A stretch of 64,000 nt of DNA from Escherichia phage KKE7M (PQ356295.1), one strand, 5' to 3'. Positions 43,742 to 61,796 are shown, counted from the stretch's first letter. The notes: generated from the letters alone by a model not told the origin. Program-made: numbers and translations.

Positions 43742-43756
43742 TGATAATGATTATCA
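43742..43756. promoter_or_regulatory. Fur-box-like palindrome TGATAATGATTATCA (perfect 7-1-7 match), with TATACT -10-like hexamer 14 bp downstream
   Basis: Exact match to Fur 7-1-7 consensus TGATAAT-N-ATTATCA. Confidence 0.55.
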
Positions 43757-44279
43757 TTTGCATATTTTCTATACTATAAAACTACCTAAAAATCAAGATA
43801 ATTCTGATTTATTGCGCTTTTAAGAGAATAGGCTCAACAAATAGGCTATAACTATGCTCAACAAATGATAGGTTATATGGGGCAATAGTATGAAAAACCA
43901 TCTATTCAGATATAAATAATTTTGCGCAATAATGGTGATATTTTTCTTGACAAGAAAGATTTCTTTGTGTTCACATAGCGTCCCCTGGAAGGTGGCGCAT
44001 TATGATCATCAATGTCATTGTTCACGATGTTTATTATTGAATAGCTTATTATATGTAGCTTATATTATAGCCAATGTTCCAAACATTAGCTAATAATAAC
44101 GCACCGCAACAATGTAAGGGATACAATATACCATGTATATTGTTGCGCTTGCAATTGTTGCAAGCTACATAAGCACAAATAATAACTATCGGTGATGGTT
44201 ATTATGTGGGGTGTGTAGTTGCGTTATTATTAGCCGCCTATGTGTCCGGCATAGGCTGCTAATGATACGCTTGCTAATT

Positions 44280-44640
44280 ATATTTCTTGTTATAATTATT
44301 GTATGAAATGATTACGGTATGAAATGATTATTTAGGTAATAGATAGTAAGGTAAAGATTAGATCATAAATAGATAGGATATTAATTATTTAGTAATGTTA
44401 CTAACAATTTAATAGTTACTTTGTGCAACAATTCGATAGATTATAGTTATAGTTTTAAAGGTTAGATAGATTATATTTAGCTTGGTAATGATTTATATTA
44501 GTTATTGTTGTTTAATATAAGGTTATCAATGAGATAGTAACAGTAAGTTATAAATAAAGGTGAAATAATTAGCTTTAATTTAGTTAGATAACTTATTATT
44601 TTATAGGTTAGATGGTCATAAGTTAAGAATGATTATCATT
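44280..44640. repeat. AT-rich iteron-like repeat block (TAGATAG repeats, 14-bp direct repeat GTATGAAATGATTA x2)
   Basis: Read directly; ORF-free. Confidence 0.5.
44624..44638. promoter_or_regulatory. Fur-box-like palindrome TAAGAATGATTATCA
   Basis: 13/15 match to 7-1-7 consensus. Confidence 0.4.
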
Positions 44641-44681
44641 ATTGCATTATGCAGTTTATTGCATAAATAATCAGCTATAAA

Positions 44682-55718: not shown

Positions 55719-55721
55719 TCT

Positions 55722-55750
55722 TGACAAGCCCAGGGATCGGGCTTATACTG
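55722..55750 (+). promoter_or_regulatory. sigma70-like promoter TTGACA-N17-TATACT
   Basis: Points into ORF-free Fur-box/repeat region. Confidence 0.4.
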
Positions 55751-55981
55751 TTTTACATACAGAAGAGGAAGCGCCACCCCCACGGCGTAAAGGCGGGGCT
55801 AACATACCAGGGGGGCACTGGTTGGAAGGTTGATCGCCGGTAGCTCGTCTAAAATAAATTTGTAAAGAAATGTAAAGATAAAAATAATCGCTTGCTTTTG
55901 TTGTTGGTTATGCTATTCTTATTGTATGGCGAGGGGACACGGGAGCGCGAGACAAACACCACCCCTGCGCGTTATTCTCTA

Positions 55982-56000
55982 AATGAGAAAAATTCTCATT
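55982..56000. promoter_or_regulatory. palindrome AATGAGAA-AAA-TTCTCATT
   Basis: Perfect inverted repeat related to adjacent Fur-box-like sites. Confidence 0.4.
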
Positions 56001-56024
56001 TGCTAACGATTCTCATTCTCTTAC

Positions 56025-56039
56025 TGAGAATGATTATCA
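56025..56039. promoter_or_regulatory. Fur-box-like palindrome TGAGAATGATTATCA
   Basis: 14/15 match to 7-1-7 consensus. Confidence 0.5.
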
Positions 56040-56053
56040 CTTACATAATTAAA

Positions 56054-56068
56054 TGATAATGATTCTCA
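56054..56068. promoter_or_regulatory. Fur-box-like palindrome TGATAATGATTCTCA
   Basis: 14/15 match. Confidence 0.5.
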
Positions 56069-56076
56069 TTTACAAA

Positions 56077-56091
56077 TGAGAATGATTATCA
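56077..56091. promoter_or_regulatory. Fur-box-like palindrome TGAGAATGATTATCA
   Basis: 14/15 match. Confidence 0.5.
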
Positions 56092-56116
56092 TACGCACAC
56101 CTATAAAAACACGAAA

Positions 56117-56320
56117 TTGAACTTTTCATTTTTGATTTTTCTACGGAAAAAGGCAAAAAAACTTTAAATAAACTGGGGAATTTTTAAAAAATTGAAGTTT
56201 TCATTTTCAAAATCTGGATAGAAATACATACAAAAACTTTAAATAATTTTGACCAAACTTGAACTTTTCATTTTCTAAATTTGTACCCAAAAATCTGTAA
56301 AAACTTTAAATAATTTTGTA
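56117..56320. repeat. three tandem ~67-77 bp repeat units, each with boxes TTGAA(C/G)TTTTCATTTT and AAAAACTTTAAATAA
   Basis: Box 1 at 56117, 56192, 56259; box 2 at 56154, 56231, 56300. Confidence 0.6.
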
Positions 56321-56532
56321 CTTTTTATAAAAATGATTTTACTGTTCTGTTATAAGTAGTAGTTAAGAGATAGTATGTCTTTTAAAGATCAGATACCATA
56401 GTCCAACAAACAAATTAAATACTTTATTAACAGGGTATAGAATACTACTTACTCTGGATATATTATTCAGAGGGTGAATTTCCGTACATGAAACCCACAC
56501 CCCTTTTTATAAAAATAAAAATTTTCAAAATA

Positions 56533-57084
56533 TCAGGAAATATCAGATTGTGCTTTTAGATAAACAGCAAGGTCTGTATGCCATTTTCCTAAAAGATTTT
56601 GTCCTTTCCAACAATCCTTATTTTCCACGTCACGATCCCACATCCCCATTTTGATACCATAAATAGAATCATAAGGGCTTGCCTCTACGAACTCCTTATC
56701 TGCGTAAGCGATAAGTTTATTTTTGAGATCTTCATTTTGTGTGTATTTAAGATACAAACCACGCTTGACAATCTTCTCCCGTAAAGAAGCCCAAGTATCT
56801 TCATCGTAATCTTTAACTAATCTACCTAGTCGCTTATAATATGCCTGTTCTTTTTCTCCTGTATATCTTAGATCTCCGGTTAAAATAGAAGATGCAATGT
56901 TGTAATCATAAAACAAACATGCTTTTCTCCACATCATATATTGTTCCACACAAGTAAATTCAACAGAACTTGTAATAGAATTATTATACTTGGGTGCTAA
57001 AGGTTCAATAAAAGATGATAGATACCAGTTGCTAAATTCATCTTTTGCTGAAAAGAAGAACACATACTTATCAGTAATCCGCAT
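56533..57084 (-). CDS. NADAR (YbiA-like) family protein
   Basis: VFFFSAKDEFSNW and CVEQYMMWRKACLF match YbiA FYS...FSNF and SEHYFQAQKF; NLLGKWHTDLAVYL C-terminal match. Confidence 0.65.
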   Translation of the reverse strand: MRITDKYVFFFSAKDEFSNWYLSSFIEPLAPKYNNSITSSVEFTCVEQYMMWRKACLFYDYNIASSILTGDLRYTGEKEQAYYKRLGRLVKDYDEDTWASLREKIVKRGLYLKYTQNEDLKNKLIAYADKEFVEASPYDSIYGIKMGMWDRDVENKDCWKGQNLLGKWHTDLAVYLKAQSDIS

Positions 57085-58074
57085 TTACATCTCCTTACTG
57101 TATACTAATTTGCCACCATATTGTGTAATAATTTTTTGAAGATTTTCCAAATCAGAAACACTTACTGTTTCTGTATAACCGTCTTTCAACTCTCTTTCCG
57201 TTAAAATACCAGTTTTTAATTTTTTCTTTATAGCTCTTTCAGCAGCCTTACATTGTTTTACTGTGCTAAAATCATATAAACAAATACGCTCCATAGGAAA
57301 CATATTACGGCTATTTTGAATTTTTAATCGTCTATCACTATCTTTAGCTATACCAAACTTAAGAGCAACTATAATATTATCATCCTTAACAATATTAATA
57401 TATAACTGCTGCTGACTATGACCAGCACACATAGGACAACCTCGACCGAGGCTTAATAAATTATGAGCACTCCCTATCTGCTCACCATGCACAAGACAAA
57501 AATATTTAAACTTACCTATAGAAGAGGGTTTGGTAATCCAATCTACCCAGACATACCCTTTCCCTTCTACTTCCTTTTTTACCCTATAGGTGATCTGGTC
57601 TTCTGTATACCGATAGTTCCCACAACGACACGGAATATACCCTCGTTTAAGGTTATCTCCTTCAGAGTAAAATTTACCATCACAAACACCTGCTTGAACA
57701 TATTCATCATGAGAGCAAACAGGACATTCAACCATCCAGATAATATTCCTACATCCTTTACCCCGTGTTCCTGTGTTAGTGAAGATAGTGCCTTCCTTAA
57801 ATTCCCCTGTAGAAAAGAAATCTGCAATATGTTGATCGTCGGACATTGTTTGTGACTTCCTTATATTCTTCCTCCTACATTGTGGACAACCGCTACCACA
57901 TTTAAAACTGTTAATACTTGTAGTATCCCATTTATAACCACAATGGCACAACAAATCAAGTTTTGTGTGGACCCCTTTCCATTGTCCCGTCCATCCTAAG
58001 ATTTGGATTTGCTTACTCTCTGCTATTGGTATACACTCTTCTTTATATTGTTCCCATGATTTTGGTGCTGCCAT
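57085..58074 (-). CDS. T5orf172 (GIY-YIG-like) domain protein with N-terminal zinc-ribbon repeats (329 aa)
   Basis: Repeated CxxC pairs; C-terminal LYINIVKDDNIIVALKFGIAKDSDRRLKIQN resembles T5orf172 domain. Confidence 0.45.
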   Translation of the reverse strand: MAAPKSWEQYKEECIPIAESKQIQILGWTGQWKGVHTKLDLLCHCGYKWDTTSINSFKCGSGCPQCRRKNIRKSQTMSDDQHIADFFSTGEFKEGTIFTNTGTRGKGCRNIIWMVECPVCSHDEYVQAGVCDGKFYSEGDNLKRGYIPCRCGNYRYTEDQITYRVKKEVEGKGYVWVDWITKPSSIGKFKYFCLVHGEQIGSAHNLLSLGRGCPMCAGHSQQQLYINIVKDDNIIVALKFGIAKDSDRRLKIQNSRNMFPMERICLYDFSTVKQCKAAERAIKKKLKTGILTERELKDGYTETVSVSDLENLQKIITQYGGKLVYSKEM

Positions 58075-58112
58075 CTACTACTCCTCTTATTAAATCTGGC
58101 ATTAATGCAAGA

Positions 58113-58134
58113 AAACCCGCCGAAGCGGGTTTTT
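58113..58134. terminator. terminator hairpin AAACCCGC-CGAA-GCGGGTTTTT
   Basis: Between AAA+ gene and T5orf172 gene. Confidence 0.55.
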
Positions 58135-58148
58135 ATTTGCTGGCTTAC

Positions 58149-59276
58149 TTAAAACACACTTGCCAAAGTTGCACCATTGGTGATAGTTGGTTCCAGAACA
58201 ATACGGAAAGAATCTTCTGGATCATCACTAAACACAACGATTTTACCGCCTGTGATAAGATCTGCTTTCATTTTTGTCGCATTCAATGGAATTCGAGCAT
58301 CGCCTTCATCATCAAAAACCACGTAAGAGCTATTAGCAAGGGCTTCTTTAGAGTCTGCATCACTTGGAGATGACAAGTACACGTCTAGTGTGCACGAACC
58401 ACCTAAAAAGATTGCAGGTGTAAAGTTATGCCAACTAGATACCCAGCTAACTTTCTGAAGTTTTCCATTAATAACAACGCTGCTGATATCCCATTTATTA
58501 CCACCACCTAAAGAAACGCCCATCATAGAGATGCATTCTTTAAAGGATAAATCAGGGTAGAAATTAAGTTCTTCTACTATACCTTGGATCACATCAAAGG
58601 ACAACTCTAAACTTACATCCCAAAGTCTTTGGAAATTATCAAAGTGTGCTTTGTTATCCAGGTTTTTATCTAAATAGTCAATCATAGTTTCTAGTGAGAT
58701 TTTATCATAATTAAAATTATAAAACACACGACTAGGACGATTTAAAAAGAATTCAGAGATAAAACCACTGTTTTTAGTCAGAATAAACAGTTTATTACCA
58801 CTGCCAGTACCATCTAACAAAGTGAGAAGTGCTTCTTGATCTTGTTTCTTCTCATATACTTTATCAAACTCGTCAAAAATAATCACTGCTTTGTCGGTGA
58901 TCTTGCTAATAAGTTCAATGAAATTAGCATCACTGTAGGCTTGAGTAACCATAATAGTTGGAATACCTTCTTCTACAAGATCACGACTAATGAGTTTGGC
59001 TAACATAGTTTTACCACTACCCTTAGTTCCTGTCAGAAGCAAGCCTGTATTTTTACCTTGTGCACTCCGGCGATGGAATGTACGGATAACGTGATTTGCT
59101 CGTTTTTCTGTTTCACCATACAGAACATCCGGTACACCTGTTAGATTACCACGGCTTAAAAAATAATTGCCAAGGGGATCACGACTAACAGTATAGAATC
59201 CAGGTGGAAGATAGTTAGATTCCACGCCCATATCTTTATTTACACTTACAATATCACCATAAATCGTGTATTTCAT
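58149..59276 (-). CDS. AAA+ / P-loop ATPase (375 aa)
   Basis: Walker A GTKGSGKT, Walker B VIIFDEFD; C-terminal domain unassigned. Confidence 0.6.
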   Translation of the reverse strand: MKYTIYGDIVSVNKDMGVESNYLPPGFYTVSRDPLGNYFLSRGNLTGVPDVLYGETEKRANHVIRTFHRRSAQGKNTGLLLTGTKGSGKTMLAKLISRDLVEEGIPTIMVTQAYSDANFIELISKITDKAVIIFDEFDKVYEKKQDQEALLTLLDGTGSGNKLFILTKNSGFISEFFLNRPSRVFYNFNYDKISLETMIDYLDKNLDNKAHFDNFQRLWDVSLELSFDVIQGIVEELNFYPDLSFKECISMMGVSLGGGNKWDISSVVINGKLQKVSWVSSWHNFTPAIFLGGSCTLDVYLSSPSDADSKEALANSSYVVFDDEGDARIPLNATKMKADLITGGKIVVFSDDPEDSFRIVLEPTITNGATLASVF

Positions 59277-59287
59277 TTTAACCCCTT

Positions 59288-59725
59288 TTATTTTTGTTGA
59301 GATGAACGAATTAAATCAGCAGCAAATTCAATCAGATACACTTTTGGTGCAATAATGATTTTTAGCCAATCAAAATTCGAAAAGAAAATAACAAATCCTA
59401 AAAAGAAAAAGAAAGCACAGACAACAAGACCAACAATAGGTAAAGCAGATACTTCACCATAACGATCTCGTGACCACAGGCATTCTTTATCTTTAATTGC
59501 TTTTACGATGTTCCGCACAGCAATAAAAGTAATAAACATAAAGCAAATACTAAAAAGTTGCCATAAACCTGCGGATACTGCTTTCCACACTAATAATTGA
59601 TGGATTACTTCTGGAATTTGTTGTTTTCCAAACTCTACAACATCACTCATTGTTTGAATAGTGACGTTAACCATGTTCAGAAGTACATCCGTTGCTTTAT
59701 CTGCGATTACGTTTGTTTTACTCAT
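59288..59725 (-). CDS. membrane protein, two predicted TM helices (145 aa)
   Basis: Hydrophobic segments LWQLFSICFMFITFIAV and LPIVGLVVCAFFFFLGFVIFF. Confidence 0.5.
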   Translation of the reverse strand: MSKTNVIADKATDVLLNMVNVTIQTMSDVVEFGKQQIPEVIHQLLVWKAVSAGLWQLFSICFMFITFIAVRNIVKAIKDKECLWSRDRYGEVSALPIVGLVVCAFFFFLGFVIFFSNFDWLKIIIAPKVYLIEFAADLIRSSQQK

Positions 59726-59739
59726 TCTTTATTCCTCAC

Positions 59740-59913
59740 TTACCTTTTAAGGAAACCAATCATAATGAAGAACCACATCCAGGCAGGAGAGATAATAAAG
59801 CCAAAGAAACCGCAAATAACCGCTTTCTTAATCTCTTCCAGACAACCCACTAGGAAAAGAACGAGTGAGACTACAATCCAAATAGCCATAAATACTGTAA
59901 CAAAGAAACTCAT
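59740..59913 (-). CDS. small membrane protein (57 aa)
   Basis: Hydrophobic; below cutoff. Confidence 0.35.
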   Translation of the reverse strand: MSFFVTVFMAIWIVVSLVLFLVGCLEEIKKAVICGFFGFIISPAWMWFFIMIGFLKR

Positions 59914-59933
59914 ACCTTTCTCCCGTCTGTATT

Positions 59934-60185
59934 TTAAAATTCAACCACCACTTTATCGAGGTGCTCTGCTTCAACTTGATCTAATGTTAACACCTCAACT
60001 AAACCCTTGTCAATACCTAATTTAATAACATCAACATATTGTCCAAACAGATCCTGGATAGATATCTTGTGTTCGACAACAACAACCACTTCATTCCCTT
60101 TTGTGAATTCTCTCCATACACGTCCACATTTGAAAATAAAGTCTGCTTCATCTGCTGTTATCATTTTAGGTTTGATACTTAACAT
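59934..60185 (-). CDS. hypothetical protein (83 aa)
   Basis: ORF. Confidence 0.45.
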   Translation of the reverse strand: MLSIKPKMITADEADFIFKCGRVWREFTKGNEVVVVVEHKISIQDLFGQYVDVIKLGIDKGLVEVLTLDQVEAEHLDKVVVEF

Positions 60186-60736
60186 TATAAAACTCCGTAT
60201 TCCGGCTCAAAATCATATTTTTCACAAATCATGTCCCAGCGTTCGTTACCGAAGCTGCGACCACAAATTGCATCGTAAGCATAATGCTCTGCTAACCATT
60301 TTACAACAGTGTCTACATCATTATCAAGTGGTAATCTGAATTCTTTGCCATAGCGCATACGAAGAACAAATTCACCCCCTTCTTCAAACAAGTGCATATG
60401 GCTTTTTGCATAAGAAGCCAGGTTGAAAAAAGATACCTCTTCCCAGCATTCTTTTTCCACTGCAATCCCGTGATCAACAACTAAAGCACCGATGACGCGA
60501 TACATAATAGGGCTAAACAGTGCGCTTGAGTTAGGCTGATCTTCAACTATAGACCAACCTGTTCCCTGCCAAATTTCATTTTTGAACCATTGTTCCATGT
60601 TATTTCCTTTTTCGTCTACAAGGGATTGGTTACGCATTTCAAACCATTCCCCTTCGCAAAAGTATGTATGTTTAACACGTTTGCCTTTTAACATTGCTTC
60701 TTTGGCTTCTACCCAAGTCAGATCGGTGTTTTGCAT
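60185..60736 (-). CDS. hypothetical protein with DUF2829-like N-terminus (183 aa)
   Basis: Start refined (GAGAGGAG RBS); TWVEAKEAMLKGKRVKH resembles DUF2829 phage proteins. Confidence 0.45.
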   Translation of the reverse strand: MQNTDLTWVEAKEAMLKGKRVKHTYFCEGEWFEMRNQSLVDEKGNNMEQWFKNEIWQGTGWSIVEDQPNSSALFSPIMYRVIGALVVDHGIAVEKECWEEVSFFNLASYAKSHMHLFEEGGEFVLRMRYGKEFRLPLDNDVDTVVKWLAEHYAYDAICGRSFGNERWDMICEKYDFEPEYGVL

Positions 60737-60852
60737 TCGTTTATCTCCTCTCATTTGTGTATGCATTAAGATTAGCACAATAAAACAGTATGTCAATACT
60801 TGATCTGAAATTAGTTTCTGGTACTCTGTGTGTATCGTAACAAAAGAGGTAG

Positions 60853-61146
60853 ATGATGAACATTACTTTAGCAACTAAGAATATTTCTGAAACAATTAAC
60901 GGTTTTGGTGTGATTGTAGCCTTGCACGGTAACAATGAGAAATGGTTGGCTTCTTTTGAAGAGGATCGTCAGCACAACATCATTTTAGATGCTCCTATAA
61001 AAGTTATGCATATTGTTGGTGAAAGCAAAGTGCTCACTTCCTCCCGTTCAAGGGAACAAATTACAAATGAATTAGTAAAACTGCTTGACAATGTTCTTAA
61101 CATGTTTGATGATGCTCCCATCAACACAAAACGTGTCTTAATGTGA
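60853..61146 (+). CDS. hypothetical protein (97 aa)
   Basis: ORF with AGAGG RBS. Confidence 0.45.
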   Translation: MMNITLATKNISETINGFGVIVALHGNNEKWLASFEEDRQHNIILDAPIKVMHIVGESKVLTSSRSREQITNELVKLLDNVLNMFDDAPINTKRVLM

Positions 61147-61158
61147 GAGGAGAACCAA

Positions 61159-61446
61159 ATGTATTATTCACAAGACGAAGTAGCAAACATTAAACTGGCA
61201 GTGGGCGATCTTATTGTGTCACCTAACTACTATTGGGATAACACAGACTTGGTTGAAGTAGTAACCTATGTTGGAGTTGAAGGTATTGTGCTCTACACAC
61301 TAGGTGGAGGTGTTGTTGGGGAAATGGAACGTTATACGACAACGAAGAAACTGGTAAGCTCTTATCACATGTTTTTACACCAAGGTTCGGAAGAGTATAC
61401 AGATTTCTTGTTGAAATTAGATGCAGATCGGGAGAAGGCACGATGA
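61159..61446 (+). CDS. hypothetical protein (95 aa)
   Basis: ORF with GAGGAGAA RBS. Confidence 0.45.
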   Translation: MYYSQDEVANIKLAVGDLIVSPNYYWDNTDLVEVVTYVGVEGIVLYTLGGGVVGEMERYTTTKKLVSSYHMFLHQGSEEYTDFLLKLDADREKAR

Positions 61447-61796
61447 AAATTGTACACGATGAAATTCAATTTGAAGAGAGTGATCTTCTTGATCTGGATG
61501 TGACACTAAGTAAACTGATCTACAATGCACTTTCTGCGTATCGTGCAAAAGTGATAGCCACAAACAATGTTAAAATTCCTAGTGGGTTACTTCGTCGGAT
61601 GTACCCACACGCTAAAGGTGACTATCTACCTTATATGGAAGAACGAGCAGCAGAACACTGGTTAGAAATTCTTGAAAAAATGGAGTCTTCTTTTAAGGAC
61701 TCAACTCCACCAGAAGAAGTTAATGAAAAACAACGGCAAGATCGTTTAGAAGGTCGTATTTTGTTTGCTAAGTATTTTCATAACCTGTGGATGTAA
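61443..61796 (+). CDS. hypothetical protein (117 aa)
   Basis: ORF overlapping upstream stop. Confidence 0.45.
   Translation: MKIVHDEIQFEESDLLDLDVTLSKLIYNALSAYRAKVIATNNVKIPSGLLRRMYPHAKGDYLPYMEERAAEHWLEILEKMESSFKDSTPPEEVNEKQRQDRLEGRILFAKYFHNLWM

Follow-up and report, generated by a model that had tools for sequence, protein, structure and literature searches.

The DNA examined here, a 64,000-nucleotide (nt) stretch of the Escherichia phage KKE7M genome (PQ356295.1) referred to below as the window, holds at positions 57085 to 60736 a run of leftward genes that an earlier note had read as a single operon for a T5orf172-domain nuclease-like protein, an AAA+ ATPase, and membrane proteins, and had likened to an exclusion or defense module rather than to replication machinery. 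We conclude that this span, together with the NADAR gene adjoining it, is likely a mosaic of independently evolving parts: a five-gene unit containing the ATPase gp221, a homing endonuclease gene (gp222), and an anti-DarTG1 NADAR gene (gp223). Part of the module claim stands, in that the ATPase does not look like a replication or packaging factor and anti-defense genes lie nearby, namely, an ortholog of NADAR^Bas60 and a weakly Tad2-like N-terminal domain in gp217. The rest does not: the T5orf172 protein sits past a terminator and has the traits of a homing endonuclease, and coupling of the ATPase to the membrane proteins is not supported. The anti-defense reading holds for NADAR only.

The features that enter the argument are listed here from right to left; L numbers label loci used in the comparisons.

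60769 to 60796, minus strand: candidate sigma-70-like promoter (TTGACA, 16-nt spacer, TGcTAATCT), read from the sequence

60530 to 61791, no strand assigned: inverted segment of ~1.3 kb that includes the divergent promoter region and codes for the Tad2-like N-domain, from blastn against L003, L004, and L085

60185 to 60736, minus strand: gp217, 183 aa, chimeric, with an N-domain at residues 1 to ~68 and a C-domain at residues ~73 to 182 (phrog_11295), from PHROG matches to each half

59934 to 60185, minus strand: gp218, 83-aa protein, phrog_4868, from its PHROG match

59740 to 59913, minus strand: gp219, 57-aa protein with two predicted transmembrane (TM) segments, phrog_22950, from PHROG and TM prediction

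59288 to 59725, minus strand: gp220, 145-aa protein with predicted TM segments at residues 52 to 70 and 97 to 115, phrog_3054, from PHROG and TM prediction

58149 to 59276, minus strand: gp221, 375-aa classical-clade AAA ATPase, phrog_2376, from Pfam, PHROG, alignment, and an AlphaFold2 model

58107 to 58140, minus strand: intrinsic terminator with a 9-bp GC-rich stem, a UUCG loop, and a U-tract, from folding and from annotation in relatives

57085 to 58074, minus strand: gp222, putative homing endonuclease gene of the T5orf172 family, 329 aa, with CapR units at residues ~27 to 220 and the nuclease at ~221 to 329, from Pfam, PHROG, and comparison of alleles

56533 to 57084, minus strand: gp223, NADAR, ortholog of NADAR^Bas60, from Pfam and primer matches

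The window belongs to Justusliebigvirus (Stephanstirmvirinae), phi92-like E. coli myoviruses with genomes of ~145 to 150 kb, and the 4.3-kb block that holds these genes is 95 to 99% identical to more than 50 Justusliebigvirus genomes. All seven minus-strand open reading frames (ORFs) described in the earlier note were found again, and they correspond to phi92 gp217 to gp223. Each of the seven proteins has a PHROG match (1e-34 to 1e-108, with the two halves of gp217 matched separately), which, combined with the identity across more than 50 phage genomes, marks them as real genes and not chance ORFs. Judging from GC skew and ORF orientation, the block opens a long leftward gene array, with a rightward array diverging at ~60.8 kb. 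The leftward array, at whose promoter-proximal end the span sits, is probably early.

The mosaic is apparent first in the layout of transcription signals. The terminator hairpin that had been reported was confirmed, as AAACCCGC-UUCG-GCGGGUUU followed by UUUUCUU (−17.8 kcal/mol, z = −2.9), and independent annotations place terminators at the same position in phages Paula and Schickermooser. As runs of A and T flank it on both sides, it may act bidirectionally. The idea of a single operon has to be given up, because this terminator divides the span and leaves at most five genes in the unit, with the T5orf172 gene and NADAR outside it. gp222 starts 33 nt past the terminator and has its own strong AGGAG site. 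The five genes gp217 to gp221, spaced by 0 to 20 nt and bracketed by the promoter-like site and the terminator, would form one transcription unit, presumably cotranscribed and expressed early. The promoter candidate has a perfect −35 (60796 to 60791) and a TG-extended −10 (TAATCT), and a GAGGAG ribosome-binding site at 60750 to 60745 precedes the gp217 ATG at 60736. A consensus promoter scanner did not list the site at 60796 to 60769, as its −10 matches at only three of six positions, and we therefore treat the promoter as a candidate. Terminator-like and promoter-like hits that the scanner gave within the region showed no excess over shuffled sequence and were disregarded. Scans of the region for tRNAs and Rfam families detected nothing, and literature searches on Stephanstirmvirinae transcriptomics returned nothing useful.

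The gene past the terminator carries the second line of evidence. Its earlier description as a T5orf172/GIY-YIG-like protein is upheld, with a narrow pass for PF10544 (20.6 bits against a cutoff of 20, residues 231 to 288), and it matches PHROG 681, “endonuclease,” at 1e-67 over residues 27 to 328. The “four CxxC pairs” ascribed to it are in fact three CapR-type units of the forms CxC...CxxC, CxxC...CxC, and CxxH...CxxC (C43xC45...C63xxC66, C117xxC120...C149xC151, and C193xxH196...C213xxC216), and Pfam CapR, PF21817, matches in three stretches with 87.6 bits. Tandem CapR/DUF723/DUF4397 zinc fingers followed by a C-terminal T5orf172 nuclease characterize a major family of phage homing endonucleases, in which recombination between repeats yields in-frame duplications and deletions (Barth et al. 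2023, PMC10448857). Repeat variation of this form is seen among the gp222 alleles, which are 329 aa long in the window, 390 aa in Paula and Bas62, 396 aa in phi92, and 331 and 486 aa in Phapecoctavirus, differing by whole units of ~61 aa (WEQYKEE...GEWKG..TKL..C..HG.W..T.I...K.G.GC..C).

Comparison of the window with phi92 shows how differently this gene has evolved from those around it. Identity is 100% for the ATPase, 98.6 to 100% for the membrane proteins, and 98% for NADAR, but only 54% for the endonuclease. At the nucleotide level, identity holds at ~95% as far as 57958, drops sharply across the DNA-binding array, and recovers in the nuclease domain from 57447 on. Distribution is patchy as well: gp222 and NADAR are both absent from KP2025-type phages (L005 and L084), where the ATPase is 74% identical, and from L007, where it is 48% identical. 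Between the window and the KP2025-type phages, similarity stops where the ATPase gene ends and picks up again just beyond NADAR, with two unrelated ORFs between, one of which in Klebsiella phage KP2025 (L084, 6167 to 7128) encodes a DUF6939 protein. The site after the ATPase terminator thus looks like a variable cargo site. Because each genome examined had either both gp222 and NADAR or neither, NADAR may hitchhike with the endonuclease. Homologs of gp222 were found at 628 places in 354 phage records, including three to four copies per ICP1 genome as well as T5 and RB49; the 64-kb window holds one copy of a gp222-type gene.

The CapR plus T5orf172 architecture, the repeat polymorphism, the swapped DNA-binding region, and the patchy distribution together argue that gp222 is a selfish mobile nuclease and not a subunit that partners the ATPase. 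By architecture and population behavior it is a free-standing homing endonuclease, whose actual homing we infer from these traits. A different possibility, which we hold to be rather doubtful, is that gp222 has been domesticated as a phage-beneficial factor, either an Odn-like anti-satellite nuclease or a CapR-like transcriptional repressor. There is precedent for both: a role as Odn-like nucleases acting against satellites has been proposed for T5orf172 proteins of the sister phages Inny and Muut, and the Vibrio satellite PLE has in CapR, its capsid repressor, a domesticated protein derived from phage T5orf172 endonucleases (PMC10448857). The fast-changing DNA-binding array would also fit an arms race with satellites, and the slot that gp222 occupies in Justusliebigvirus holds a gp222-type gene in Phapecoctavirus as well. 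However, gp222 has CapR zinc-finger units and not the RepA_N domain that defines Odn-like proteins, and the gene is missing from related phages that retain the flanking genes. The putative catalytic residues Y225, R249, and E302 (GYTE) are moreover invariant in four alleles that are 38 to 87% identical, which speaks against a nuclease-dead repressor.

The five-gene unit is dominated by gp221, a protein with a recognizable ATPase core. Both motifs cited for it previously, GTKGSGKT (residues 82 to 89) and VIIFDEFD (residues 130 to 137), were confirmed. The protein consists of a small N-terminal beta-barrel (residues 1 to 45), an AAA module, a helical lid (195 to 252), and a beta-rich C-terminal domain (~255 to 367); the AlphaFold2 model (predicted local distance difference test score, 88.8) likewise has a five-stranded N-terminal barrel, an alpha/beta core, a helical lid, and a beta-rich C terminus. 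Pfam AAA, PF00004, matches with 38.9 bits against a cutoff of 21.2. The AAA module contains Walker A (82 to 89), Walker B (134 to 136), sensor-1 N169, an arginine pair, R180 and R183, in the second region of homology (SRH), and a pore-loop-like Y114. Sequence searches place gp221 in a large family of proteins of ~350 to 400 aa. Across an alignment of 56 homologs, Walker A (GTKGSGKT), Walker B (IIFDEF), N169, R180, and R183 are invariant and several residues within the first 55 are nearly so, while the C-terminal third is poorly conserved. The pore-loop position 114 is aromatic (F, W, or Y) in 47 of the 56, and position 116 is Gly in 37; the window protein has Y-S-D.

The SRH arginine pair places gp221 in the classical AAA family. 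Its LTKNSGFISEFFLNRPSRV aligns with GATNRPDIIDPAILRPGRL of p97, and the SRH reads NRPSRV compared to LRPGRL. The best structural matches are protein remodellers. The C-terminal domain, called unassigned by the earlier note, remained so after structure prediction and comparison, which gave no match to a solved structure for that domain. We put at about even the chance that gp221 is expressed early, forms a ring, and remodels a host or phage protein. Literature searches for a characterized phage AAA ATPase of the gp221 type returned nothing useful.

A role in replication or packaging, with gp221 as a DnaC-like helicase loader, a clamp loader, or an initiator, must be weighed here, as the earlier note had named this outcome as one that would count against its reading. 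The analysis did not find such a factor: the SRH is classical, with the two arginines that are the hallmark of classical AAA protein remodellers, and the structural matches are remodeller-like. Clamp-loader and DnaC PHROGs match at P-loop level (1e-8 to 1e-6), Hda, IstB, and RuvB NCBIfam models match far under their cutoffs, and homologs have been deposited under names such as “replicative helicase,” “DNA replication protein,” and “DnaC.” P-loop similarity is, however, all that the first and third of these names rest on, and assignment to the clamp-loader, DnaC, or initiator AAA+ clades was rejected when gp221 failed both a family-level match and a closest-structure test. A paralog of the ATPase does lie near nrdDG and a UvrD helicase gene, but no replication genes are near the ATPase in the window, and elsewhere its neighbors are auxiliary (NAMPT, rIIA/B, SPFH, and GDSL). 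We regard a replication or packaging role as highly improbable. The labels “FtsH-like protease” and “Zn metalloprotease,” found in several GenBank records, were rejected in turn, as gp221 has no M41 domain, no HEXXH motif, and no TM segment to support them.

The distribution of the ATPase family bears on its origin. We confirmed at least 411 loci in IMG/VR and found the family in 360 GenBank phage records, covering phages of Proteobacteria and Firmicutes. Carriers include Stephanstirmvirinae, CBB-like jumbo phages, and Aeromonas, Proteus, and Acinetobacter phages and, among phages of Gram-positive hosts, those of Enterococcus, Bacillus, Staphylococcus, Brochothrix, Lactobacillus, and Lactococcus. 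Full-length structural matches are present in BFVD. Among bacteria and archaea, a survey of 185,579 species with one genome each gave only 35 loci, nearly all on contigs of metagenome-assembled genomes. This near-absence from bacterial genomes indicates a phage gene and not a host-type defense gene.

Justusliebigvirus also carries a second ATPase copy, ~45% identical and ~15 kb away, outside the window. This copy, seen in L010, L012, and L083 (7490 to 8650; bas62_0073 in Bas62), has nrdDG on one side and, on the other, clustered genes for HAD-like, phosphoribosyltransferase, and macrodomain proteins; records of Phapecoctavirus show a single copy only. When all ORFs around 80 viral loci were clustered, no universal partner of the ATPase emerged. 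The two most “conserved” ORF clusters proved to be antisense ORFs within the ATPase gene itself and were set aside. Neighbors that do recur are NAMPT, a macro-like phrog_335 “phosphatase,” rIIA/rIIB, SPFH, a GDSL hydrolase, CMD, and a metallophosphoesterase, all of which are typical auxiliary or early-region genes.

Certain of these neighborhoods touch on NAD+ metabolism. At nine environmental loci (L016, L031, L034, L038, L043, L052, L057, L063, and L068), whose ATPases are mostly 52 to 85% identical to one another, NAMPT is found a short way upstream of the ATPase, in several cases as its immediate neighbor, and the macro-like phrog_335 gene lies within a few kilobases, upstream in eight, often with rIIA/rIIB near. 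These loci, the macro-like, phosphoribosyltransferase, and HAD genes near the paralog, and the NADAR gene next to the window ATPase with only the endonuclease between hint at a link to NAD+ or ADP-ribose. It is conceivable, though in our estimation improbable, that the phrog_2376 family is a widespread phage-specific remodeller within a toolkit for NAD+/ADP-ribose conflict. Such an ATPase could possibly dismantle activated oligomeric host immune effectors, by analogy with the resetting of HORMA/CBASS by bacterial Trip13, with gp219 and gp220 perhaps serving, in this phage lineage, as its membrane tether. The adjacency may equally be plain synteny arising from a general clustering of accessory early genes, and a gp221-type ATPase goes unmentioned in papers dealing with NARP3 or with viral NAD/ADP-ribose systems.

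The genes upstream of the ATPase have histories of their own, and the clearest case is gp217. Relative to the Justusliebigvirus-like IMG/VR contigs L003 and L004 and to Phapecoctavirus Schickermooser (L085), the ~1.3-kb segment listed above is inverted, and the left breakpoint of the inversion falls within gp217. In uninverted genomes the two halves of gp217 are separate genes on opposite strands, which, with the breakpoint inside the gene, identifies gp217 as a fusion of two proteins; the 183-aa form is found in the window, phi92, Paula, and Bas62. Having altered the genes that precede the ATPase while leaving the ATPase undisturbed, the inversion argues against a tightly integrated module. 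The earlier description of gp217 as DUF2829-like stands weakly, and for residues 1 to ~68 only, as the whole protein is without a Pfam match. Within the gp217 family in the exhaustive search collection, 9 of 33 members match PF11195 (Tad2-like), the best of them at an E value of 0.0028. When the PDB was searched with a profile, SptTad2 came first with an E value of 0.11, and Tad2 and ModTad2 gave 0.4, all nonsignificant.

The remaining small proteins differ in how far they travel with the ATPase. gp218 is syntenic with it throughout the subfamily. Both the 57-aa and the 145-aa protein contain two hydrophobic segments, in agreement with their earlier description as membrane proteins, and, when they were considered as possible superinfection-exclusion proteins of the T4 Imm/Sp kind, neither matched a named family in Pfam or PHROG. 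In relatives, a small two-TM ORF sits at the position equivalent to gp219, with weak or no sequence similarity. The gp220 family comprises only 54 clusters, the longer contigs in which are ~150 kb, and is lineage restricted; in Phapecoctavirus a different ORF of 119 to 128 aa, with no detectable similarity, fills the gp220 slot. We take gp217, gp218, gp219, and gp220 to be accessory genes that would be cotranscribed with the ATPase, with a functional tie to it possible.

The strongest form of such a tie would be an early membrane-anchored machine for superinfection exclusion or counter-defense, in which the soluble AAA ring is brought to the inner membrane by the two 2-TM proteins and of which gp217 and gp218 might or might not be part. 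Several features are compatible with it: a single promoter-like site and a single terminator enclose the closely spaced genes, the ATPase has no TM segment of its own while its structural matches Bcs1, Msp1/ATAD1, and FtsH-like proteins act at membranes, and anti-defense genes are near, with NADAR and the weakly Tad2-like domain. Relatives also keep the order of the 83-aa, small 2-TM, 145-aa, and ATPase genes, even where ATPase identity falls to 48% (L007). Nonetheless, we find this machine unlikely. The 145-aa family is limited to the lineage of ~150-kb phages and replaced by a dissimilar ORF in Phapecoctavirus, while the ATPase family is far wider, and the inversion has reshuffled the 5′ end of the unit at no apparent cost. 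TM-protein neighbors are not enriched across the ATPase family, with 10 of 70 upstream positions compared to 16% of background ORFs. Scans with PADLOC and NCBIfam models assigned none of the ATPase, membrane, and nuclease proteins to a defense system; the four proteins presumably cotranscribed with the ATPase are without a PADLOC match, as is the nuclease, and PADLOC hits to the ATPase were weak and at P-loop level (E values of at least 8.5e-4). A lineage-restricted gp220, a widespread gp221, and unenriched TM neighbors point to lineage-level synteny as the basis of the association between ATPase and membrane proteins. The association could be functional within this lineage, though the comparative data do not require that it is.

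Some observations weigh against the mosaic of a five-gene remodeller unit and a homing endonuclease. The −10 of the candidate promoter is weak, and in the clade of gp221 the pore-loop glycine is replaced by Asp (YSD). The gene order retained as far as L007 may reflect a functional link between the ATPase and the small proteins, and the shared slot of gp222-type genes in two genera also fits a domesticated nuclease or repressor of benefit to the phage.

If the mosaic is as we propose, the five-gene unit would be transcribed from the sigma-70-like promoter to the intrinsic terminator, with the classical-AAA ATPase as its main product. Soon after infection, the ATPase ring would remodel or unfold a protein substrate at the expense of ATP; its N-terminal beta-barrel may serve as the site for substrate or adaptor, and its lineage-specific C-terminal beta-domain may tune specificity. 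Independently, gp222 would cut alleles that lack the gp222 gene and spread by recombinational repair, carrying flanking DNA along. The flanking DNA would include NADAR, which would remove DarT1-made ADP-ribose from guanine in DNA and so counter DarTG1.

NADAR is the one component with an anti-defense role already demonstrated, for the Bas60 allele. It had been placed downstream of the T5orf172 gene, and a Pfam NADAR match of 125.8 bits agrees; the gene adjoins gp222 just outside 57085 to 60736. The primers used to clone NADAR^Bas60 (PMC11257639) match at 57060 to 57084 with no mismatches and at 56533 to 56562 with one. NADAR^Bas60, which is common to Bas60 to Bas62, is a DNA ADP-ribosylglycohydrolase countering DarTG1: in its presence, phages sensitive to DarTG1 plated several logs better; it also neutralized DarT1 toxicity without infection, but it did not counter DarTG2 (PMC11257639). 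The window NADAR also matches the PADLOC candidate model PDC-M42C.

Downstream of NADAR, an AT-rich stretch of ~800 nt (55720 to 56530) has no convincing ORF. It contains three direct repeats of ~70 nt (56114 to 56334) and palindromic TGAGAATGATTATCA iterons (56025 to 56091), and it stays similar even in KP2025-type phages. This stretch may function as an origin, as a cluster of promoters, or in regulation. With a criterion of at most three mismatches to the 19-bp E. coli consensus, four Fur-box matches were found at three sites in the window (43743 to 43761, 44625 to 44643, and 56055 to 56073), compared to 0.06 expected from shuffles. These Fur-box-like sites may be iron- or Fur-responsive phage promoters or may titrate Fur.

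The comparisons also touch on the quality of public records. Four GenBank entries labeled “Campylobacter phage” with host C. jejuni (MG065639, MG065645, MG065656, and MG065689) are ~95% identical to the full block, and such identity to an E. coli phage block suggests that they are probably mislabeled or are contaminant coliphage genomes. The labels “FtsH-like protease,” “Zn metalloprotease,” and “replicative helicase” on the ATPase are unsupported, and the “nuclease-like” gene gp222 is better read as a mobile homing endonuclease. Most parts of the span are already explained, and its sequence is essentially identical to published phages. What the ATPase offers is a family of classical AAA proteins almost exclusive to large virulent phages, found in hundreds of genomes from phages of Gram-negative and Gram-positive hosts and sometimes in two copies. 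As the tractable E. coli phages Bas60 to Bas62 and phi92 carry it, the family is a reasonable target in the BASEL phages.

Known systems provide a measure for each component. The window NADAR is the same gene as that of the NADAR^Bas60, or AdfN-type, enzymes (PMC11257639) and is 98% identical to phi92 gp223; activity was shown for the Bas60 allele, and the window gene is assigned by orthology. The gp217 N-domain has a weak sequence likeness to Tad2 (DUF2829, PF11195), a Thoeris anti-defense sponge. The motifs A-x-E-A-M-K-x-G-K-x-V at the N terminus and W...GW-x-I/V at the C terminus align with SptTad2, and Tad2 proteins make up three of the six best PDB profile hits, although all of the matches are nonsignificant (E = 0.11 to 0.41), the domain is ~65 aa compared to ~90 aa for Tad2, and it is fused to an unrelated domain.

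Compared to the classical AAA remodellers (Bcs1, bacterial Trip13/Pch2, NSF-D2, p97/Cdc48 D2, and YjoB), gp221 shares Walker A and B, the sensor-1 Asn, the SRH arginine pair, an aromatic residue at the pore-loop-1 position, and the presence of an N-terminal accessory domain before the ATPase module. Identity is only 14 to 19%, and gp221 differs in having its own small N-terminal beta-barrel, in lacking both a TM anchor and a peptidase domain, and in belonging to a family essentially confined to large virulent phages. For gp222, the counterparts are the ICP1 gp174-type endonucleases (PMC10448857), to which it is only ~32% identical and from which it differs in copy number, with one in the 64-kb window against three to four per ICP1 genome. 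It nevertheless has in common with them an N-terminal tandem array of CapR-type zinc-finger units ahead of a C-terminal T5orf172 nuclease, a free-standing position between conserved genes, repeat-number polymorphism with swapping of the DNA-binding domain, and a patchy presence among relatives alongside many homologs in other phages.

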